DNA from: an uncultured bacterium
GTDB lineage: Bacteria; Patescibacteriota; Minisyncoccia; Phycocordibacterales; DATDWN01
Assembly (NCBI GenBank): GCA_963727715.1
Contig: CAVSGX010000004.1
Coordinates: 82,582-146,581, forward strand
Reading direction: 5' to 3'
DNA length: 64,000 nt
Position 1 is the stretch's first letter. Every line of letters starts with the position of its first letter. Shown here piece by piece: positions 1-57,110 of the stretch. Under the pieces are notes generated by a model that saw nothing but the letters and a program-made list of their open reading frames with translations, did not search any database and was not told the origin of the DNA. Made by a program: the position numbers and the translations under genes.

Positions 1-2495
<2,495 letters not shown>

Positions 2496-2978
2496 GCTCT
2501 TAAATTTCCCATTAGGAAATTTAAAAACCACTTCGCCAAAACATTTTGTAACCAAAAGTGTTTTGGACTTTAACTTCGTCCTGTTATATGAAATGAATCA
2601 TAGAACAGTTTTTACTTTTACTTTTTACCCCATCTGCATGGAAAGACCCCAAACATCTTGCGATATCTGAGAACCACACGATGGAATGTGCCCGATTCAA
2701 AACCTCGGTTTCTCCGCGAACAGTTTTTCAAGCAACTAGGCTTCCTGATTTTCACTGATTTTCATTAAAGCTGTTTTATTTGTTTTTTTCATCTTAGGAT
2801 GAAAAAAACCGCTTTTTAAGCGGGATTTTCGGACAACACTCAAAAGAGGGTCATCTATACCGCTGTAAAAAATGAAGTGAATTAAACATATCTGTAATGA
2901 GAGAAAGTATATACGAAGCAAAATATTTGTCAAATGAAAGCCCTTGTGGAAAAAGTGGGGATAAATAGGGGCCACAAA

Positions 2979-4067: not shown

Positions 4068-4655
4068 CTACAGAACCCCGAGCTTATTTACCAGTTTTTT
4101 GTGAGGATAATCCAGAATGTCGCGAATAAGTTTGTCATACATGCCGTTGCGGTAGTTGAAATCTTCGGTTGTGAAGTAAGAATAGCGCAATTCCTTGCCC
4201 ATTTGCGATTCCAGAGTCTTAATGGTATGTCCCAGAGCCGAATTTTTGACATGGTCTCCGACAATTAAAATATCCACGCGACTTTCTGGATTTTGGATAA
4301 AAACACCGGCCACAAGAAGAAGTTTGATCACTCCTATCTTTGAGATTCTATTTATAATCTCCTTTGGCTGAAGCGGATCAATATTTATCAAAAAATTCTG
4401 CAAAGGCAAAAGATAAGTGAACTGACTATTTAGAACAAAACCGGTTTTGTGGGAATTGCGCATCATATGATGTTTGACTAAACAGGCTTTCTGCAAGAGT
4501 TTTAGTTCTCTGCGAACATTGACCAGATTCTCATTTGTCCTTCTGGCGATTTCAGCAGTGTTGAAAACCGTTTCCGGATTGAAAAGAAAAAGTCGCATCA
4601 TCTTGACCTTGGCCTCCGAGCCAAAAAGTTTTGATAGAGTTTCCATGCCCGCCAT
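4068..4655 (-). CDS. Putative winged-helix transcriptional regulator (N-terminal wHTH plus uncharacterised C-terminal domain).
   Basis: The N-terminal segment SKLFGSEAKVKMMRLFLFNPETVFNTAEIARRTNENLVNVRRELKLL resembles ArsR/MarR-type wHTH. Confidence 0.45.
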   Translation of the reverse strand: MAGMETLSKLFGSEAKVKMMRLFLFNPETVFNTAEIARRTNENLVNVRRELKLLQKACLVKHHMMRNSHKTGFVLNSQFTYLLPLQNFLINIDPLQPKEIINRISKIGVIKLLLVAGVFIQNPESRVDILIVGDHVKNSALGHTIKTLESQMGKELRYSYFTTEDFNYRNGMYDKLIRDILDYPHKKLVNKLGVL

Positions 4656-5044
4656 TATACACCCGAGCCACCCAAAAAAGCGACAGTTGACAAAAAAACA
4701 ATATGGTGATTAGATGATGGAGGAGGTTCGTGTGTTTTACATCAAAATGTTTGTCGTCGGACACAATTTATTCAATCCAGATAAATATTTTGGCCCATAC
4801 AATAGCGTACGTAAATGAAGCGATAGAGGACTTGTTAAAAAATGGCTGGATTCAATCAGATTGTTTAGGACGTTATTACTCAAAGAAGGGACTGGGAGTA
4901 ATATTGTTTGGGCGAGAAATGTTTAGGCGAGAAATGCAAGCATCAATTTTTAAGTTTGAAGACATCAAGGATTTTTGACTAAAAACTCGAGTGCCACGCA
5001 CCCGAGCTTTTCTTTTTTATTACACCTTACTTTTTACTCTCTAC

Positions 5045-6187: not shown

Positions 6188-7597
6188 TCAATTCTCAACA
6201 AAAAGTCCACGAATGAAATTAAAACCGCGAATCGGCCAAGCGAAAATCCTGCTGATAAACCCCGGGCTAGATGTGGCCACAAAAACAGTGGCCGTTTGAC
6301 TGGAATTATTTGTTGCTGGTGGAATTTTGGTCTGTGATTTTGCTAGAGCCGGCGCTGAAATTGATGTTGAATTTTTTGGTATTTCTGCCGAGGCTAATGA
6401 AAACATCTGGGTAGGTATTGTTGTGGTTGAATTTATTTCCGATTGTAGTGAGGCTAATTTCTGACGAACACTTGAAATGCCGGTCAAAATGTCGTTTAGA
6501 TCCCCAATTGAAGTGGTGGAAATTACACTATTTGTTGCGACAATATTTTGACCGGGCAGACTGGCGTAGGTTTGGCCGAGTTGGTTTCTTATTTGCAAAT
6601 CGCCGGAGCCGAAGCCCAGATCAGTCAGATCATCGGCGAAAATAATTTTTTGGCCATCTAGTATTAAGGTGTCTTTAGGGAAAATAAATGACTTATTGGA
6701 CGAACCGAGAAGCCATCCTTCTAGATTTATTTCTGCCCCAGAATTGTTTGCCACTTCCAAACCGCCAGAAACTTTTCGAATGCTGATTTTCGGGTCAACC
6801 ACCAAAACTGTCAGCCGATCCGCGGCCATCTGATCAGAAGCGTTTGCGTTAACCACCACGGAATATTTCCCCGGAAACTTGTAGGCGTGATGAACAAGAC
6901 TGCCCGCATCGGTTGATCCATCGCCAAAAGACCATTCATAGTTGATTGAGTTTGAAATGATACCTTGCGTTTTAACGGGTTTAACAACGAACGTCAGATC
7001 ATTGCCGACAGAAGTCAAACGGTCTCGCCCGCACGATATTTCAAAATCAATTGTTATCTCGTCACTCGGTAAGGAAGCCGGAGAGGAGTTGGCCGACAAA
7101 TTTGAAGTAGTATTATTCTGGTTGTCTGTGCTGGTACTTTGATCTGTTGTGGTAGCGGTAGTTGTGGTTGATGTTTGATCTCCCCCGGGAACAGGTTGGC
7201 CTATGTAAATATGTTGACTTATGGTAGTAATCTGCACTTTAGCTTTGCTCAAAACCACTGCGGTGATGACAAAATCACCAGCTGTGGAATCTTCATAATA
7301 AACAGCGCGATTGGAATCACCGGTAGAGATATAGGCGCTTTTCAGCAGACCTCCAGTGCTGGTCAAAAATTGTCCTGTCGGTGAGGAAGAAGTGAAATCG
7401 AGATATGTCGTTTCGGTCACCGGACTGCTGGACTGCACATTTATTTTGCCAGACATTTGGCCCGCCGGCACACTTTGCGGATCAGTGCTGAAAGTAAATG
7501 AATTGTCCGCAAAAACCACCGACAAAATTGGTAAAAATATAAAAATGGATACAACAAAGAACAAATATTTAAAATTTCTCATATATAAGTTAGACAT
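6188..7597 (-). CDS. Secreted / membrane-anchored surface protein with a PKD-like and a lamin-tail (LTD)-like domain.
   Basis: N-terminal signal/TM segment. WSFGDGSTD...HAYKFPGKYSVVV is a PKD signature. NLEGWLLGSSNKSFIFPKDTLILDGQ is an LTD-like motif. Thr/Ser-rich linker. Confidence 0.6.
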   Translation of the reverse strand: MSNLYMRNFKYLFFVVSIFIFLPILSVVFADNSFTFSTDPQSVPAGQMSGKINVQSSSPVTETTYLDFTSSSPTGQFLTSTGGLLKSAYISTGDSNRAVYYEDSTAGDFVITAVVLSKAKVQITTISQHIYIGQPVPGGDQTSTTTTATTTDQSTSTDNQNNTTSNLSANSSPASLPSDEITIDFEISCGRDRLTSVGNDLTFVVKPVKTQGIISNSINYEWSFGDGSTDAGSLVHHAYKFPGKYSVVVNANASDQMAADRLTVLVVDPKISIRKVSGGLEVANNSGAEINLEGWLLGSSNKSFIFPKDTLILDGQKIIFADDLTDLGFGSGDLQIRNQLGQTYASLPGQNIVATNSVISTTSIGDLNDILTGISSVRQKLASLQSEINSTTTIPTQMFSLASAEIPKNSTSISAPALAKSQTKIPPATNNSSQTATVFVATSSPGFISRIFAWPIRGFNFIRGLFVEN

Positions 7598-20284: not shown

Positions 20285-21339
20285 CTTTCCAAAAGCGACA
20301 GGAATGAAATCAAGATTTTGTTGGACAAAAAATATTCACAGAGAGACATTGCTCTGTCCTTAGGCAGAAGCAACTCAACCATTTCGGAAGAAATCAAGCT
20401 TGGCTCGGTTAGAAGCAAATATGATCCGCTCAAAGCTCACCACAAAGCATATGTCAGACGGTGGCAGTCCAAATACCAAGCGATGAAAATAGTGGAAGAT
20501 ACAGAACTGAGAAATTTTGTGGAGAAAAAACTTTTGAAAGACGATTCACCGGTCAATATTTCAGGCAGAATCAAGAAGCATGAAAAATATCTGACAAACA
20601 TTTCCAAAAACAGCATATACAGATACATCGAAAGCCTGTATGGCAGAAGAATTGAAAATCACAGGAACAAAAGAAAACAGAGGAGAAAAAATTGCAGACC
20701 AAAGTCGGAAAAGCTCAAAGACAGAGTTTTCATCGCCAAAAGACCTAAATATATAGCCACTAGAAAAAGAATTGGTGATGCTGAAGCTGATTTCATTGTT
20801 TCCGGCAAAAGTGGCAAAGGAATATTGCTTGTTGTTGCAGACCGAAAGTCTAGGACTCCATTTTTGGAGAAAATACTTCCAACCACCATTACTGAAGTTG
20901 AAAAGGGGTTTTTGAAAATCAAAGAGAGATTTCCTGAACTGAAAACTTTGACTTTGGACAACGACATTCTTTTCAGGCATCATGTGAGACTTGAAAAACT
21001 TTTGAATATCAAAATATATTTTTGCAACCCGTACCACTCTTGGGAAAAAGGCACTGTTGAAAAAGTGAACCGAGAGATACGAAAAGACATTCCGAAAGGC
21101 AGCAACATTTCCAAATATTCCAGGCAATTCATCTGTTCGATTGAAGAGAAACTTCAAAACAAAATATACAAATGTTTGAACTACCACACCCCTTTTGAAG
21201 TCTTGAACAAGCACAGAAAAAGAAAAAACACCTCTGACTCCAATTAGTCAGGGTGTTCGGTTTGAGGGGGGTTCGCAGGTGCTACCTCCACTTGTCATTA
21301 TACACCTTTTAAATTTAAAGTCAAGTGGATTTTGAGGCC
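20210..21339 (+). mobile_element. IS30-family insertion sequence, copy A. Ends are approximate; putative imperfect terminal inverted repeats ggccctagattcc..cacttg / caagtggattttgaggcc.
   Basis: Encodes the IS30-type DDE transposase (see CDS 20256-21247). Size ~1.1 kb, typical for IS30. Confidence 0.5.
20256..21247 (+). CDS. IS30-family transposase, apparently frameshifted at the N-terminus. ATG 20256 is followed by an A7 run; the HTH continues in the -1 frame, and the ORF track starts at TTG 20318.
   Basis: The C-terminus LTLDNDILFRHHVRLEKLLNIKIYFCNPYHSWEKGTVEKVNREIRKDIPKG is colinear with the second IS30 transposase (36871-37815). The in-frame upstream sequence FSHLSKSDRNEIKILL aligns with FKHLSYEERVLISAL of copy B but has no in-frame ATG. 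Confidence 0.7.
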
Positions 21340-33312: not shown

Positions 33313-34155
33313 CTATTTTCTTTTGCCAACTTTGCGACGAGAGATGACAAATTTGTTTGAGTATTTTTTCGGTGTGCGAGTTTTTTGACCCTTGCCTGTC
33401 GGTCGGCCCCATGCCGAAACGGCCCGACGGCGACCACGGCCTTGTCTGCCTTCTCCACCGCCGTGCGGGTGATCTACCGGGTTCATGGCTGTGCCACGAA
33501 CGGTCGGGCGAATGCCAAGCCAGCGCGAGCGTCCGGCTTTACCGAGATTGACCAAACGATTTTCTTCATTGGACAAAACGCCGATTGAAGCGAAGCAGGT
33601 TTCTTTGACTCTGTGAATTTCCGAGGACGGCATCTTGAGGTCAACCATCCCGGCATCCTTGGCCACCACTTCCAGATAATTCCCCGCCGAGCGTCCGAAC
33701 TTGGCCCCGCCCTGCGGTTTGACTTCAACATTGTAAACAAAAGTGCCGACATTTATATTGCGCAGAGGCAAGCGATTACCAACTTTTTGTTCGGCCGTCT
33801 CGGAGGTCAAAAACATTTCTCCAATTTTTACACCTTGTGGGATCAGAACATATCTTTTTTCTCCATCTCGATACTGGACCAAACCGATGAAAGCGCTGCG
33901 GTTCGGATCGTATTCAATCGTTTTCAAAGAGTAAGGAATACCTATTTTGTCATATTTAAAATCAACTTCGCGGAAAAGTCTTTTGTGCCCGGCGCCTTTG
34001 TGGCGAGTGGTCACTTTGCCGTGATGGTTTCTACCGACAGCCCGTTTAAATCCACGAGTCAGAGATTTTTCTGGTTTTTGAGTGGTCAAAATATCGCCAA
34101 AAGAAATGGTGGTCATGCCTCTACGCGATTTTGATGTTGGTTTGTATTTTTTCAT
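33313..34155 (-). CDS. rplB: Ribosomal protein L2.
   Basis: …GRNHHGKVTTRHKGAGHKRLFR… and …PHGGGEGR…. Confidence 0.97.
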   Translation of the reverse strand: MKKYKPTSKSRRGMTTISFGDILTTQKPEKSLTRGFKRAVGRNHHGKVTTRHKGAGHKRLFREVDFKYDKIGIPYSLKTIEYDPNRSAFIGLVQYRDGEKRYVLIPQGVKIGEMFLTSETAEQKVGNRLPLRNINVGTFVYNVEVKPQGGAKFGRSAGNYLEVVAKDAGMVDLKMPSSEIHRVKETCFASIGVLSNEENRLVNLGKAGRSRWLGIRPTVRGTAMNPVDHPHGGGEGRQGRGRRRAVSAWGRPTGKGQKTRTPKKYSNKFVISRRKVGKRK

Positions 34156-40543: not shown

Positions 40544-40584
40544 TTATACACCTTTTCACATTTTTTGTCAAGTTCAATTTACAG

Positions 40585-44678: not shown

Positions 44679-46838
44679 TTATTTTCTTGCCTCAATTATC
44701 GCTTTCTCAACATTCGGCGGGACGACTTCATAGTGGTCAAATTCCATCATCATTGAACCGCGACCTTGGGTCATGGAGCGGATGTCTGTGGTGTAGCCGA
44801 ACATTTCGGAAAGCGGCACTTTAGCGTGAACGACACGAAGCTGACCGCGTTCATCCATTCCTTCTATTTGCCCGCGCTTGCCGGAAAGCGAGCCGGTAAT
44901 GTCACCCATAAACTGCTCCGGCATGACAACTTCCACTTTCATAATAGGTTCCAGAATGACCGGGCGAGCGCGCTTGGCGGCATCTTGGAAAGCCTGCGAA
45001 GCGGCGATTTTGTAAGCGATTTCGGAAGAGTCAACATCGTGATACGAACCGTATGTCAGCTCGCAGGAAACATTGACCATCGGATAGCCGGCGACAATCC
45101 CGCGACCCATCGCTTCGCGCACACCTTTCTCCACAGCCGGAATAAATTCCTGCGGGATGACACCGCCTTTGATGGAATCAATGAATTCAAAGTCATCGTA
45201 GCGTTTGACATTTTTCGGAATTTTTTTGCCCTCGGCAATCGGCTCCATCGGTTTCAAATTTAATTTGACGTGACCATACTGACCTTTGCCACCGGTTTGT
45301 TTGATGTATTTGTGTTCGGCTTCGGCCGTGCCGAGAATGGTTTCGCGATATGCCACTTGCGGTTTGCCGACATTGGCTTCCACCGAAAATTCTCGCTTCA
45401 TTCTTTCAACCATAATTTCCAAGTGGAGCTCGCCCATGCCGGAAATGATAGTCTCACCGGTTTCGGTATTACTCGAAATAACAAATGTGGGGTCCTCGTC
45501 GGAAAGTTTTTTCAAAGCCAAACCCATTTTTTCCTGGTCGGCTTTTGTTTTCGGTTCAATGCGCAAAGAAACGACAGGGGCCACGAATTTGATCGGTTCA
45601 AGGATGATCGGCTTGTCCTCGTCGCAGAGCGTGTGTGAAGTTTTGGCTGATCTTTAATCCGACAGCCGCGGCGATTTCGCCGGCGAAAACTTTTTTGACT
45701 TCTTCGCGCTTGTCGGCTTGCAGACGGACGATGCGACCGAGACGTTCTTTTTCGCCTGTTGTTGAATTGTAAATATATGTGCCCGCCTCAATCGTCCCGG
45801 AATAGACGCGGAAGAAAGTCAGCTGACCGACGAACGGATCGTTTTGCAGTTTGAAAGCCAGAGCGGCAAAGGGCTCTTCGTCTGAAGCGTTGCGATAAAT
45901 ATCCTCACCGGTTTTCGGGTCTGTTCCGTGTACCGGCGGAATATCAGAGGTGATGGTAAATAGTCCACCACTCCGTCGAGAACGAGCTGCACGCCTTTGT
46001 TTTTCAGCGCCGAACCGGCGTAAACAGGAACGATTTTGACGGCGATGCAAGCTTTGCGCAAAGTGGTTTTGAGTTCTGGGACAGACGGCTCGCTTCCTTC
46101 CAGATATTCATGCATCAGTTTGTCATCTTCGGAAACAATTTTTTCCACCAGTTCATCGCGATATTTTTTTGCTTCTTCCAAATATTCTGCCGGCATTTCC
46201 GCCTCGCGAACGTTGATACCCATATTACCTTCAAAGTAGTAGGCTTTCATATCCAGCAAATCAATCACACCTTCAAATTTATCTTCCAATCCCATCGGGA
46301 TTTGCATTCGCACTGCGTTTTTAGTCAGACGATCCAAAATGGAAGCGTATGATCTTTCAAAACTCGCGCCTGTGCGGTCCAGCTTGTTGATGAAGCAGAT
46401 GCGTGGCACGTTGCCGTCGTCGGCATAGCGCCAGTTGGTTTCGGATTGTGGTTCCACACCGGCCACACCGTCGAAAACCACCACCGCGCCGTCGAGCACA
46501 CGAAGCGAGCGTTTGACCTCGGCTGTAAAATCAATGTGCCCGGGAGTGTCAATAATATTGAAACGATAAAGATTTTCATGCAGAGGTTTGCCGTCCGCGC
46601 CACGAGCTTTGTATGTCGGGTTCCAGAAACAAGTGATGGCTGCCGCCGTGATAGTGATGCCGCGTTCCCTCTCCTGCTCCATCCAGTCGGTCACCGTTTC
46701 GCCCTCGTGCACTTCGCCGATTTTGTGGGTCATGCCCGTGTAGAAAAGCACGCGCTCCGAAGTGGTCGTCTTTCCTGCGTCAATATGGGCAATAATGCCG
46801 AAATTTCTGACTTTCTCTAATGGGTAATCTCTGTTCAT
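44679..46838 (-). CDS. fusA: Elongation factor G, fragmented into three ORFs (45819-46838, 45598-46050, 44679-45584) by two apparent 1-nt frameshifts (~45945 and ~45642).
   Basis: N-terminal [18 protein letters not shown]...DTPGHIDF...NKLDR. Domain [16 protein letters not shown].... Domains III-V ...[27 protein letters not shown].... The frames reconnect at ...VDYLPSPL|DIPPVHG and ...AAAVGLK..|..[14 protein letters not shown]. Confidence 0.9.
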
Positions 46839-49103: not shown

Positions 49104-49147
49104 TTGTGTTGCACCAGCAACACAACTATGCTAGCATACTTACCACT

Positions 49148-49390
49148 ATGGCAAAAGTATGTCCGATCAATAAAAAAGGTTCGCGCATGGGTGGCGGGTA
49201 TTCCAATCGCACTCGCGCCACACAATTCAACCCGACCGGCATGGTCCGCAAATATCCAAACCTCCAGAAAAAGAAGGTTTATATCCCCGAACTGAAAAAA
49301 TCAGTCACTCTTTTGCTTTCCACTAAAGGTATCAAAACTATCCAAAAAAACGGCGCTTTCATCACACTGAAAAAAGCCGGGTTGATCTAA
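49148..49390 (+). CDS. rpmB: Ribosomal protein L28.
   Basis: MAKVCPINKKGSRMGGGYSNRTRATQFNP.... Confidence 0.8.
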   Translation: MAKVCPINKKGSRMGGGYSNRTRATQFNPTGMVRKYPNLQKKKVYIPELKKSVTLLLSTKGIKTIQKNGAFITLKKAGLI

Positions 49391-49417
49391 AATACGTATC
49401 AAATAATTAACCTTATC

Positions 49418-49447
49418 AAAAATACCGCTCAAATAAGCGGTATTTTT
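49418..49447. terminator. Bidirectional intrinsic terminator after rpmB.
   Basis: aaaataccgct-caaataa-gcggtatttttga. Confidence 0.7.
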
Positions 49448-49477
49448 GATATTAGGCATTATGATTATTGAATTTAC

Positions 49478-49506
49478 TTGACAAAAGACTAAAGATGGTG
49501 TATGAT
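49478..49506 (+). promoter_or_regulatory. Consensus sigma70-type promoter (TTGACA - 17 nt - TATGAT) driving the candidate ncRNA.
   Basis: TTGACA at 49478-49483 and TATGAT at 49501-49506, read directly. Confidence 0.6.
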
Positions 49507-49512
49507 ACCCAT

Positions 49513-49844
49513 AAAAGATGCCGTTCTATTGAACGCTTGGAATCATGGCCTCCGGCTAGAGCACCGAAGGAGGTCACGAAGCACCTGTGACCGGAAGCCG
49601 CATCGTGGCTGAAAAATAAGGTGGATCCCCGGAAGTTATGACCCCGGTGGACGCGCTGACCCAGTGCGAGAAAAAGGGTGATTTGGTTCTTAGGGAGAAT
49701 ATCATGCATCGCTGAGTGAAGGCGTCGTTAAATAAGTTCCCAAAGGTTGACGCACCAAGGTTGCGAGCGACTCTAGGCCCGAGTCGAATACCCGGCCGTG
49801 TAAATGCATCCGGGTGCCCAGACAATTTTGTCTGGGCTTTTTGT
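49513..49844 (+). ncRNA. Candidate structured ncRNA (~330 nt, GC-rich, no credible ORF). Identity unknown; possibly a divergent RNase P RNA, tmRNA or SRP RNA.
   Basis: Bounded by a perfect promoter and a strong terminator (gcccagacaattttgtctgggc + T-run at 49816-49844). GC content is far above the genome background. Only short or implausible ORFs. Confidence 0.5.
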
Positions 49845-49848
49845 TTAC

Positions 49849-50724
49849 CTATTTTTGCAAAACAAACTGTTTACCGTCGGAGTGCAAAACAATTCGGCCC
49901 AAATCGTATGTGCCGAGAATTTGCACACCGTACTTTTGCAGTGTGGCTACTGTTGTCGTGGCCGGAAAGCCGTAGCTGTTCCCTTTTTCGGCCGAGATAA
50001 CGGCAATTTGTGGCGCGACTTCTTTGACAAACTCATCCGAAGTGGAAGTTTTGGAACCATGATGCCCGACTTTCAAAATAGTGCTCTGTAAATTTTTCCC
50101 ATCAAGCGAGATTAAATAGTCTTCAATTTTTTTCGGCGAGTCCCCGGTCAAAAGCACGCTTGTGTCTCCGTAAGTCAGACGCGAAACGACCGAGGCGTCG
50201 TTACTAGCCAAACCGGAAACATCGCGATCGGGGAAAAGAATTGTAATTTGCGCGCCGTCACCAAGATCAATAACCTCTCCGCGCCTAGCCAAAATTTCAG
50301 GAATATTTTTTTCGACAATTTCTTTTTCCAATAATGCATAATCAGGTGTAGCCGAGCGATAACCAGACTCTACAACCACATCCACTTTGTAATTTTGCAG
50401 GAGCGAAATAAATCCGCTGTAATGATCGCTGTCCGAGTTGGTGATGATAATAGCGTCAATATGTTTGTCCCACCACGGCATAACGGCCGGCAGTTCGCGA
50501 ATCAAGTTGTCGTTTGGTCCACCGTCCATCAAAACTTTCACACCACCCGGCGATTCAATGAAAAGCCCGTCACCTTGACCGATGTTAAGCGCAGCGAATG
50601 TCAGACCGATTTGATTTTCGGCTAGTGTGACCGACCACAAAACAGCGCAGAAAACAAAAAGCGATAGCAACAAGTACCAGCGAAAATATTTTTTGATGTG
50701 GGAGAAAATTTGCTTCATACTCAT
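49849..50724 (-). CDS. Metallo-beta-lactamase-fold protein of the ComEC C-terminal-domain type, with a signal-anchor.
   Basis: Matches the ComEC MBL domain: …DAIIITNSDSDHYSGF… and …LKVGHHGSKTS…. Confidence 0.7.
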   Translation of the reverse strand: MSMKQIFSHIKKYFRWYLLLSLFVFCAVLWSVTLAENQIGLTFAALNIGQGDGLFIESPGGVKVLMDGGPNDNLIRELPAVMPWWDKHIDAIIITNSDSDHYSGFISLLQNYKVDVVVESGYRSATPDYALLEKEIVEKNIPEILARRGEVIDLGDGAQITILFPDRDVSGLASNDASVVSRLTYGDTSVLLTGDSPKKIEDYLISLDGKNLQSTILKVGHHGSKTSTSDEFVKEVAPQIAVISAEKGNSYGFPATTTVATLQKYGVQILGTYDLGRIVLHSDGKQFVLQK

Positions 50725-57034: not shown

Positions 57035-57036
57035 TG

Positions 57037-57110
57037 TCCGCCCTCCACGACTCGAACGTGGGACCCTCGAGGTATAAGCTCGATGCTCTAACCAACTGAG
57101 CTAAGGGCGG
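57037..57110 (-). tRNA. tRNA-Ile with anticodon UAU. CCA is not encoded.
   Basis: Perfect cloverleaf CCGCCCT-TA-GCTC-AGTTGGTTA-GAGC-A-TCGAG-CTTATAC-CTCGA-GGGTC-CCACG-TTCGAGT-CGTGG-AGGGCGG-A. Anticodon loop CU-UAU-AC. Confidence 0.8.

Follow-up and report, generated by a model that had tools for sequence, protein, structure and literature searches.

A candidate orphan small RNA gene in the variable spacer between the convergent rpmB and MBL-fold genes of a Patescibacteria bacterium

In a 64-kb stretch of DNA (referred to here as the window), we identified a self-contained element that separates rpmB from an MBL-fold gene pointing towards it. We propose tentatively, with the evidence close to evenly balanced, that this element is a lineage-specific, independently transcribed accessory small RNA (sRNA) gene located in a convergent spacer. 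According to this proposal, a unit of ~400 bp consisting of a promoter, a body and a terminator would have been inserted between the two genes in one lineage. Its near-consensus sigma-70 promoter would give rise to a transcript from around position 49513. This transcript of ~330 nt, which would carry no translatable ORF, is predicted to end in a series of three hairpins, of which the third is a canonical intrinsic terminator. The product would most probably be an accessory, non-essential sRNA acting in trans and not a universal housekeeping RNA; by analogy, it might act by base pairing or by protein binding. An accessory ncRNA of ~330 nt appears most likely because fitting signals coincide exactly with the two ends of the insert and no coding trace is seen. 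Transcription of the unit, the choice of the plus strand as the functional strand and any function of the RNA are inferred.

Transcription signals and base composition of the element

The element and its neighbours comprise the following features (window coordinates).

49145..49390, plus strand: rpmB (ribosomal protein L28), upstream neighbour on the same strand; translation MAKVCPINKKGSRMGGGYSN...
49414..49451, plus strand: rpmB terminator hairpin, with perfect 16-nt arms (49414-49429 and 49436-49451), a 6-nt loop and a T-run
49478-49506, plus strand: promoter identified by consensus match, with -35 TTGACA (49478-49483), a 17-nt spacer and -10 TATGAT (49501-49506)
49513..49815 (~303 nt), plus strand: candidate ncRNA body, 53.8% GC, no ORF with a ribosome-binding site (RBS), no Rfam match
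49768..49786, plus strand: first 3' hairpin, GACUC-UAGGCCC-GAGUC with a flanking pair, from fold prediction
49790..49815, plus strand: second 3' hairpin, CCCGGCC...GCAUCCGGG, from fold prediction
49816-49844, plus strand: intrinsic terminator with a 9-bp stem, a 4-nt loop and a U-tract
49849..50724, minus strand: MBL-fold (ComEC C-terminal-like) gene, PF00753, convergent downstream neighbour

The promoter is of the sigma-70 type (TTGACA-17 nt-TATGAT), matches the consensus at 11 of 12 positions and has the ideal spacer of 17 nt. Only five sites with at least 11/12 matches occur across the two strands of the 64-kb window; the number expected from shuffles is 2.1. An earlier note on this DNA (the sequence-only reading) had described a textbook promoter at 49478-49506, and its place among the five best sites of the window bears out this description. 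Judging from the position of the promoter, transcription would start at ~49512-49514. The other four sites are all on the minus strand: the sole perfect 12/12 consensus promoter of the window (TTGACA-17-TATAAT) is located at 40571, and 11/12 sites are located at 21324, 6191 and 2933, the last of which is upstream of the 23S rRNA.

At the other end, the terminator hairpin (49816-49837) reads GCCCAGACA-ATTT-TGTCTGGGC and is followed by TTTTTGTTT. Six of its nine pairs are G-C, in agreement with the strong intrinsic terminator noted earlier, and the terminator (49816-49844) stops 5 nt short of the stop codon of the convergent gene. Since rpmB has a terminator of its own upstream of the element (49414-49451), the unit is bracketed by terminators on both sides, as had been claimed. 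The features by which an sRNA gene can be recognized, namely a promoter of its own, a Rho-independent terminator and the absence of a translatable ORF, were thus all found in the element.

The base composition is less distinctive. The sequence-only reading had stressed a GC-rich body in an AT-rich window. The body (49513-49815) does have a GC content of 53.8%, compared with 43.1% for the window, and falls in the top 3.5% of 300-nt windows, but the window as a whole is not strongly AT-rich. Several coding stretches of the same genome have a GC content of 50-58%, comparable to that of the body, and the contrast is mainly against the flanking intergenic DNA (25-32% GC). The argument from composition is therefore weaker than stated. 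Two further regions of the window (33413-33612 and 45585-45818) have a GC content of 51-59%, lie outside the picked ORFs and look like coding sequence; frameshifts in genes or the greedy ORF selection itself may account for them. The number of CCGG sites in the element (6) was found not to be unusual, being reached by 1.3% of windows. An 8-nt direct repeat (TATTTTTG, at 49441 and 49850) was considered as a target-site duplication and rejected as too short and AT-rich. No extended complementarity was seen between the element and the rest of the window.

The rpmB/MBL spacer in related genomes

To place the element in its genomic context, we compared the neighbourhood with that of relatives. The MBL-fold protein has 3864 homologs, which in Patescibacteria are named 'competence protein ComEC' or 'MBL fold metallo-hydrolase', and the source names of the homologs include Zambryskibacteria, Paceibacterota and Minisyncoccia. 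The host is a Paceibacteria-type (CPR/Patescibacteria) bacterium. Loci were gathered through the MBL-fold protein, and 80 more were gathered from metagenomes through L28; 104 loci were compared (93 of them from relatives; ~0.8 Mb), with those of relatives spanning +/-3-6 kb around rpmB. Genome contigs searched with the MBL-fold protein yielded just two loci, both distant (34-35% identity). The rpmB translation is 74-97% identical to PF00830-carrying genes in related loci, and the gene order S7-S12-M50 peptidase-L28-><-MBL was found to be conserved across loci. On an identical Logan contig (L013), the gene caller misses rpmB and predicts a spurious 52-aa antisense ORF in its place; the protein collection does not contain the exact L28 sequence. 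An exact look-up of the S12 protein of the window for sister strains returned only the same Logan contig.

Searches of the 104 loci with blastn and nhmmer matched the element only in L013, which represents the same genome (99.985% identity); this genome is also present in run ERR11594402. In none of the relatives' loci compared was the element found, either at the syntenic site or within +/-4-6 kb of it. Six pattern scans of IMG/VR with 16-18-mers gave only chance matches, none of which extend, and blastn against phage and plasmid collections gave nothing. The comparison with related genomes that the sequence-only reading had proposed thus turned out against conservation: the element is unconserved in the loci compared, and its slot is empty or filled by unrelated cassettes. 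As no homolog besides the identical genome was found in the loci compared, there is no covariation or conservation to show selection.

The spacer between rpmB and the MBL-fold gene was found to be highly variable across 60 related Patescibacteria loci, ranging from an 11-nt gene overlap up to several kb. Where both genes are present, their 3' ends overlap or are separated by a few tens of nt in ~23 loci, by 150-900 nt in ~19 loci and by several kb in 8 loci. Unrelated spacer contents occur even among the closest relatives (77-84% MBL identity). The contents include the following.

L003/L004 and L026: empty spacer
L001, L006, L010, L014, L025 and L028: promoter, GGAGGTG RBS, TTG start, a small Cys-containing protein of 65-81 aa and a GCGACC...GGTCGC terminator (ORFs at L001:4876-5085, L006:3938-4135, L010:3136-3381, L014:899-1123 and L025:~4654-4851, and in L028)
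L008/L009: a different cassette, GC-rich and lacking an ORF, ~200 nt long, whose promoter matches at 12/12 positions and whose terminator has 9 bp (L008:3867-4113, minus strand)
L029/L030, farther relatives: ORF-less, GC-rich cassette of ~200 nt on the opposite strand, with an 11/12 promoter and a terminator hairpin in L029 (L029:~6320-6524, minus strand)
L060, a farther relative, 1097-1207, plus strand: SAM riboswitch (RF00162, 46.6 bits)

The small slot proteins are fast-evolving, have an N-terminal Cys motif (C..C or CxxC) and belong to no Pfam family; the element shows no similarity to them. The ORF-less cassettes of L008 and L029 have no Rfam match and are related neither to one another nor to the element of the window. 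Homology between the element and the L008 cassette was considered and rejected, as the two have only a 10-mer (TGGATCCCCG) in common and their local alignment scores 25, against 22 +/- 3.4 for shuffles. The presence of varied, compact cassettes running from promoter to terminator suggests that the slot habitually carries small expressed genes. Insertions into the convergent spacer disrupt no promoter, and small, self-contained cassettes with strong promoters turn over rapidly there in relatives. In L003 (1-1369), DGR-like genes for bAvd and a reverse transcriptase lie within a few kb of the slot, and in L010 (720-2411) a shortened MBL gene is immediately preceded by a serine recombinase; both are signs of mobile-element activity around the neighbourhood.

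The instability of the slot also bears on the main rival to an sRNA gene, namely that the element is neutral inserted DNA, either what remains of a cassette since replaced or a fragment gained by horizontal transfer, possibly transcribed but functionless. We consider this somewhat unlikely, with an appreciable chance of being correct. Contents that are unrelated even between close relatives, the restriction of the element to a single genome among the loci compared, the lack of conservation and covariation and the shuffle-like fold stability of the body would all be expected of such DNA. However, a promoter and a terminator placed exactly at the ends of the insert would be a notable coincidence for junk. 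Moreover, no frame shows stop depletion or a residual coding signal that would point to a decayed gene, and the six-frame translations match nothing (tblastn against all collected loci).

A more far-reaching and rather improbable extension of the sRNA reading is that the rpmB/MBL spacer of Paceibacteria is a hot spot where small genes with strong expression are captured or arise again and again. The element would then be the first representative, and to date the sole one, of a class of CPR RNA not yet described, which might do the work of a missing regulator (such as a 6S-like or sponge RNA). The inventory of such a hot spot may comprise the small Cys proteins together with no fewer than three ORF-less RNA cassettes that are unrelated to one another (the element and those of L008 and L029).

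Predicted folding, coding potential and known RNA families

We analyzed the predicted folding of both strands. The minimum free energy (MFE) of the plus strand was -102.2 kcal/mol (z -1.6 against shuffles) and that of the minus strand was -90 kcal/mol (z -0.56). Sliding sub-domains of the body gave z values from +0.4 to -1.8, with the central parts between -0.6 and +0.4. The 3' module, consisting of two hairpins and the terminator, had a z value of -5.05, and its MFE structure made up 41% of the ensemble. Structure prediction, which the sequence-only reading had suggested, thus singles out the trio of 3' hairpins and leaves the body unremarkable. The predicted thermodynamics of the body are weak support for a highly structured RNA. 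The better folding of the plus strand than of the minus strand (-102 versus -90 kcal/mol) is evidence for an sRNA gene; the lack of conservation, the near-shuffle fold of the body, a GC content like that of coding stretches and the missing complementarity to the rest of the window are evidence against it.

The same predictions bear on the possibility that the minus strand is functional, either as a long 3' UTR of the MBL gene or with the plus-strand RNA acting as a cis-antisense RNA to read-through transcripts. In the minus direction, the terminator hairpin (49837-49816) is followed by ACCCGG and no U-tract, so that MBL transcripts may read through, and a weak terminator-like site is located further on at 49535-49522 (minus strand). 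This site has only 5 pairs, however, and the minus strand folds no better than shuffles. Relatives can do without any spacer between the two genes, and the strong promoter and the terminator are both on the plus strand. We regard a functional minus strand as quite improbable.

We then examined whether the element could encode a protein. Each plus-strand frame of the body contains 5-7 stops, and the plus-strand ORFs are only 25-36 aa long, none with a properly spaced Shine-Dalgarno (SD) sequence. The minus strand contains two overlapping ORFs of 83 and 85 aa, both without an SD. The claim of the sequence-only reading that there are only short ORFs without an RBS therefore holds for the plus strand and passes over the two longer minus-strand ORFs. 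Log-odds of codon usage, with 29 long genes from the window as the training set, were negative in all six frames (-0.20 to -0.70). The two minus-strand ORFs scored -0.06 and -0.13, which is non-coding-like, compared with a mean of +0.26 and a 5th percentile of +0.086 for true genes. The ORFs of the element had no match in Pfam and no entries in a collection of 15 billion proteins, and a protein search with frame -2 found no homolog. Frame -0 matched two tandem-repeat junk 'proteins' at 30-34% identity per repeat; these were rejected as an artefact, the E-values being inflated because a weak match of 43 aa recurs in 7-13 near-identical repeats. The gene caller predicted no gene in the element on the identical contig L013. 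We conclude that the region is non-coding on both strands.

These results leave a gene for a small protein or peptide on either strand, comparable to the small-protein cassettes of relatives, very unlikely. The length of the minus-strand ORFs is near that of the slot proteins of relatives (63-83 aa), and a perfect AAGGAGGU is present at 49567-49574 on the plus strand. However, the start nearest to AAGGAGGU, a GUG 11-13 nt further on, opens an ORF of merely 10 codons, and the minus-strand ORFs have neither an SD, nor coding-like scores, nor a Pfam match, nor a real homolog. The GGAGGTG SD 5-8 nt upstream of a 63-83-aa ORF, which marks the small-protein cassettes, was not found in the element, nor was any similarity to their proteins.

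To determine whether the element belongs to a known RNA family, we searched it with Rfam 15. No match was found in the body at the gathering thresholds or at E<=10 (521-nt region), and a scan of the whole 64-kb window at E<=1 likewise gave nothing there. The weak Rfam matches all fall on the rpmB terminator, which draws sub-threshold, terminator-like matches. The RNase P RNA models RF00010 and RF00011 gave no match at the gathering thresholds or at E<=10, a scope that stops short of the 5-bit level, and the 6S RNA model RF00013 gave no match to the element. ARAGORN detected no tmRNA or tRNA-like element at the default or 80% thresholds; a 'hit' at the 60% threshold ran past the ends of the sequence and was discarded as meaningless.

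Motif scans gave the same picture. The strands of the RNase P P4 pseudoknot have the consensus sequences GGAAAGUCC (CR-I) and ACAGAAnnCGGCUUA (CR-V). With these consensus sequences, the best matches in the element had 3-4 mismatches out of 9 for CR-I and 4-5 out of 13 for CR-V, no better than in shuffles. SRP RNA domain IV carries a GGAA tetraloop and a symmetric-loop motif, and tmRNA has a tRNA-like domain with a T-arm, a CCA-ending acceptor stem and a tag reading frame. In the element, the RNase P CR-IV and SRP domain IV motifs occurred at chance level relative to shuffles, and the match to the tmRNA 3'-end motif was worse than in shuffles. The sequence-only reading had failed to find a P4 motif or tRNA-like parts by eye, and these scans agree with it. 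The Rfam check that it had proposed (RNase P, tmRNA, SRP and 6S models) came back empty for the body, and its suggestion of an RNase P RNA, tmRNA or long SRP RNA falls away with the negative searches. What stands of its candidate ncRNA is a stand-alone, non-coding unit with a promoter and a terminator.

An identity as RNase P RNA, tmRNA, SRP RNA or 6S RNA is not supported. A highly divergent form of one of these, which the size, the GC enrichment and the lack of any RNase P RNA, tmRNA, SRP RNA or 6S RNA detected elsewhere in the 64-kb window would fit, is barely credible given the negative searches at E<=10 and with relaxed ARAGORN thresholds, the chance-level motifs, a predicted structure (MFE and centroid) that is multibranched and not a 6S-like rod, and a syntenic position that in relatives is empty or holds unrelated cassettes, with the element missing from the surrounding +/-4-6 kb as well, which is unexpected behaviour for an essential housekeeping RNA gene. 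Sub-threshold RNase P RNAs do occur in CPR genomes, where 10 out of 35 scored under the Rfam cutoffs and came to light only once the threshold was set to 5 bits; in these cases the model was still matched and core features were kept (Lui et al. 2021, PMC8172020).

The same scans yielded observations on other RNA genes of the window. A 23S rRNA match at 412-2513 (minus strand) covers model positions 1-2925 in only ~2.1 kb; as the match also has large insertions (e.g., 247 nt), much of the model must be missing from it. At 370-446 (minus strand), a tRNA-Ala(UGC) overlaps the 3' end of this 23S rRNA, and a weak tRNA-like match (27 bits) lies next to it at 271-337 (minus strand). Unusual rRNA and tRNA arrangements of this kind are known from CPR genomes. 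A tRNA-Ile with the anticodon UAU was found at 57036-57110 on the minus strand (ARAGORN; Rfam tRNA, 66 bits). Bacteria seldom have a tRNA-Ile(UAU); in most of them, AUA is read by a CAU tRNA modified with lysidine.

Significance and comparison with known systems

If expressed, the element would be among the very few candidate regulatory RNAs described for CPR/Patescibacteria, in which regulation is, to our knowledge, almost unknown. The slot comparison shows turnover of small genes in a spacer between convergent genes, where insertions hit no promoter. The variable rpmB/MBL slot, with its small proteins and several unrelated RNA-like cassettes, is the more interesting by-product of the analysis. 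The element has no bearing on the question of divergent CPR housekeeping RNAs, because it is not one of them.

Compared with the divergent RNase P RNAs of CPR bacteria (PMC8172020), the element likewise has a CPR host, a length of ~300 nt and a high GC content and is missed at the Rfam gathering thresholds. Unlike the element, which has no match at E<=10, those RNAs match RF00010 at low thresholds. The element also lacks the CR-I and CR-V (P4) motifs and is unconserved in relatives. With 6S RNA (ssrS) it shares a strong promoter of the type seen for abundant RNAs, the absence of an ORF and poor sequence conservation between lineages. However, 6S RNA is a rod of ~180-200 nt with a central bubble, whereas the element is ~330 nt long and predicted to be multibranched.

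The Cys-protein cassettes of relatives resemble the element in occupying the same slot in the same orientation and in their compact architecture (promoter, ~200-300 nt, terminator). They differ in having a GGAGGTG RBS, a TTG start, an ORF of 65-81 aa, a GC content of 32-40% and a shared GCGACC...GGTCGC terminator; the element has none of these features and no sequence similarity to them.

The closest likeness in kind is to orphan sRNA genes. At ~330 nt, the element is at the long end for base-pairing sRNAs, it is known from sequence alone, and it is without known target complementarity or chaperone context. Its CPR host also sets it apart, as we found no studies in the literature on sRNA in CPR bacteria. 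Like orphan sRNA genes, it has a stand-alone sigma-70 promoter, a Rho-independent terminator preceded by hairpins and no ORF; a location between two convergent genes and a restricted phylogenetic range are further points in common. Although it fits no family described so far, the element is of an ordinary kind, an orphan sRNA-like gene.
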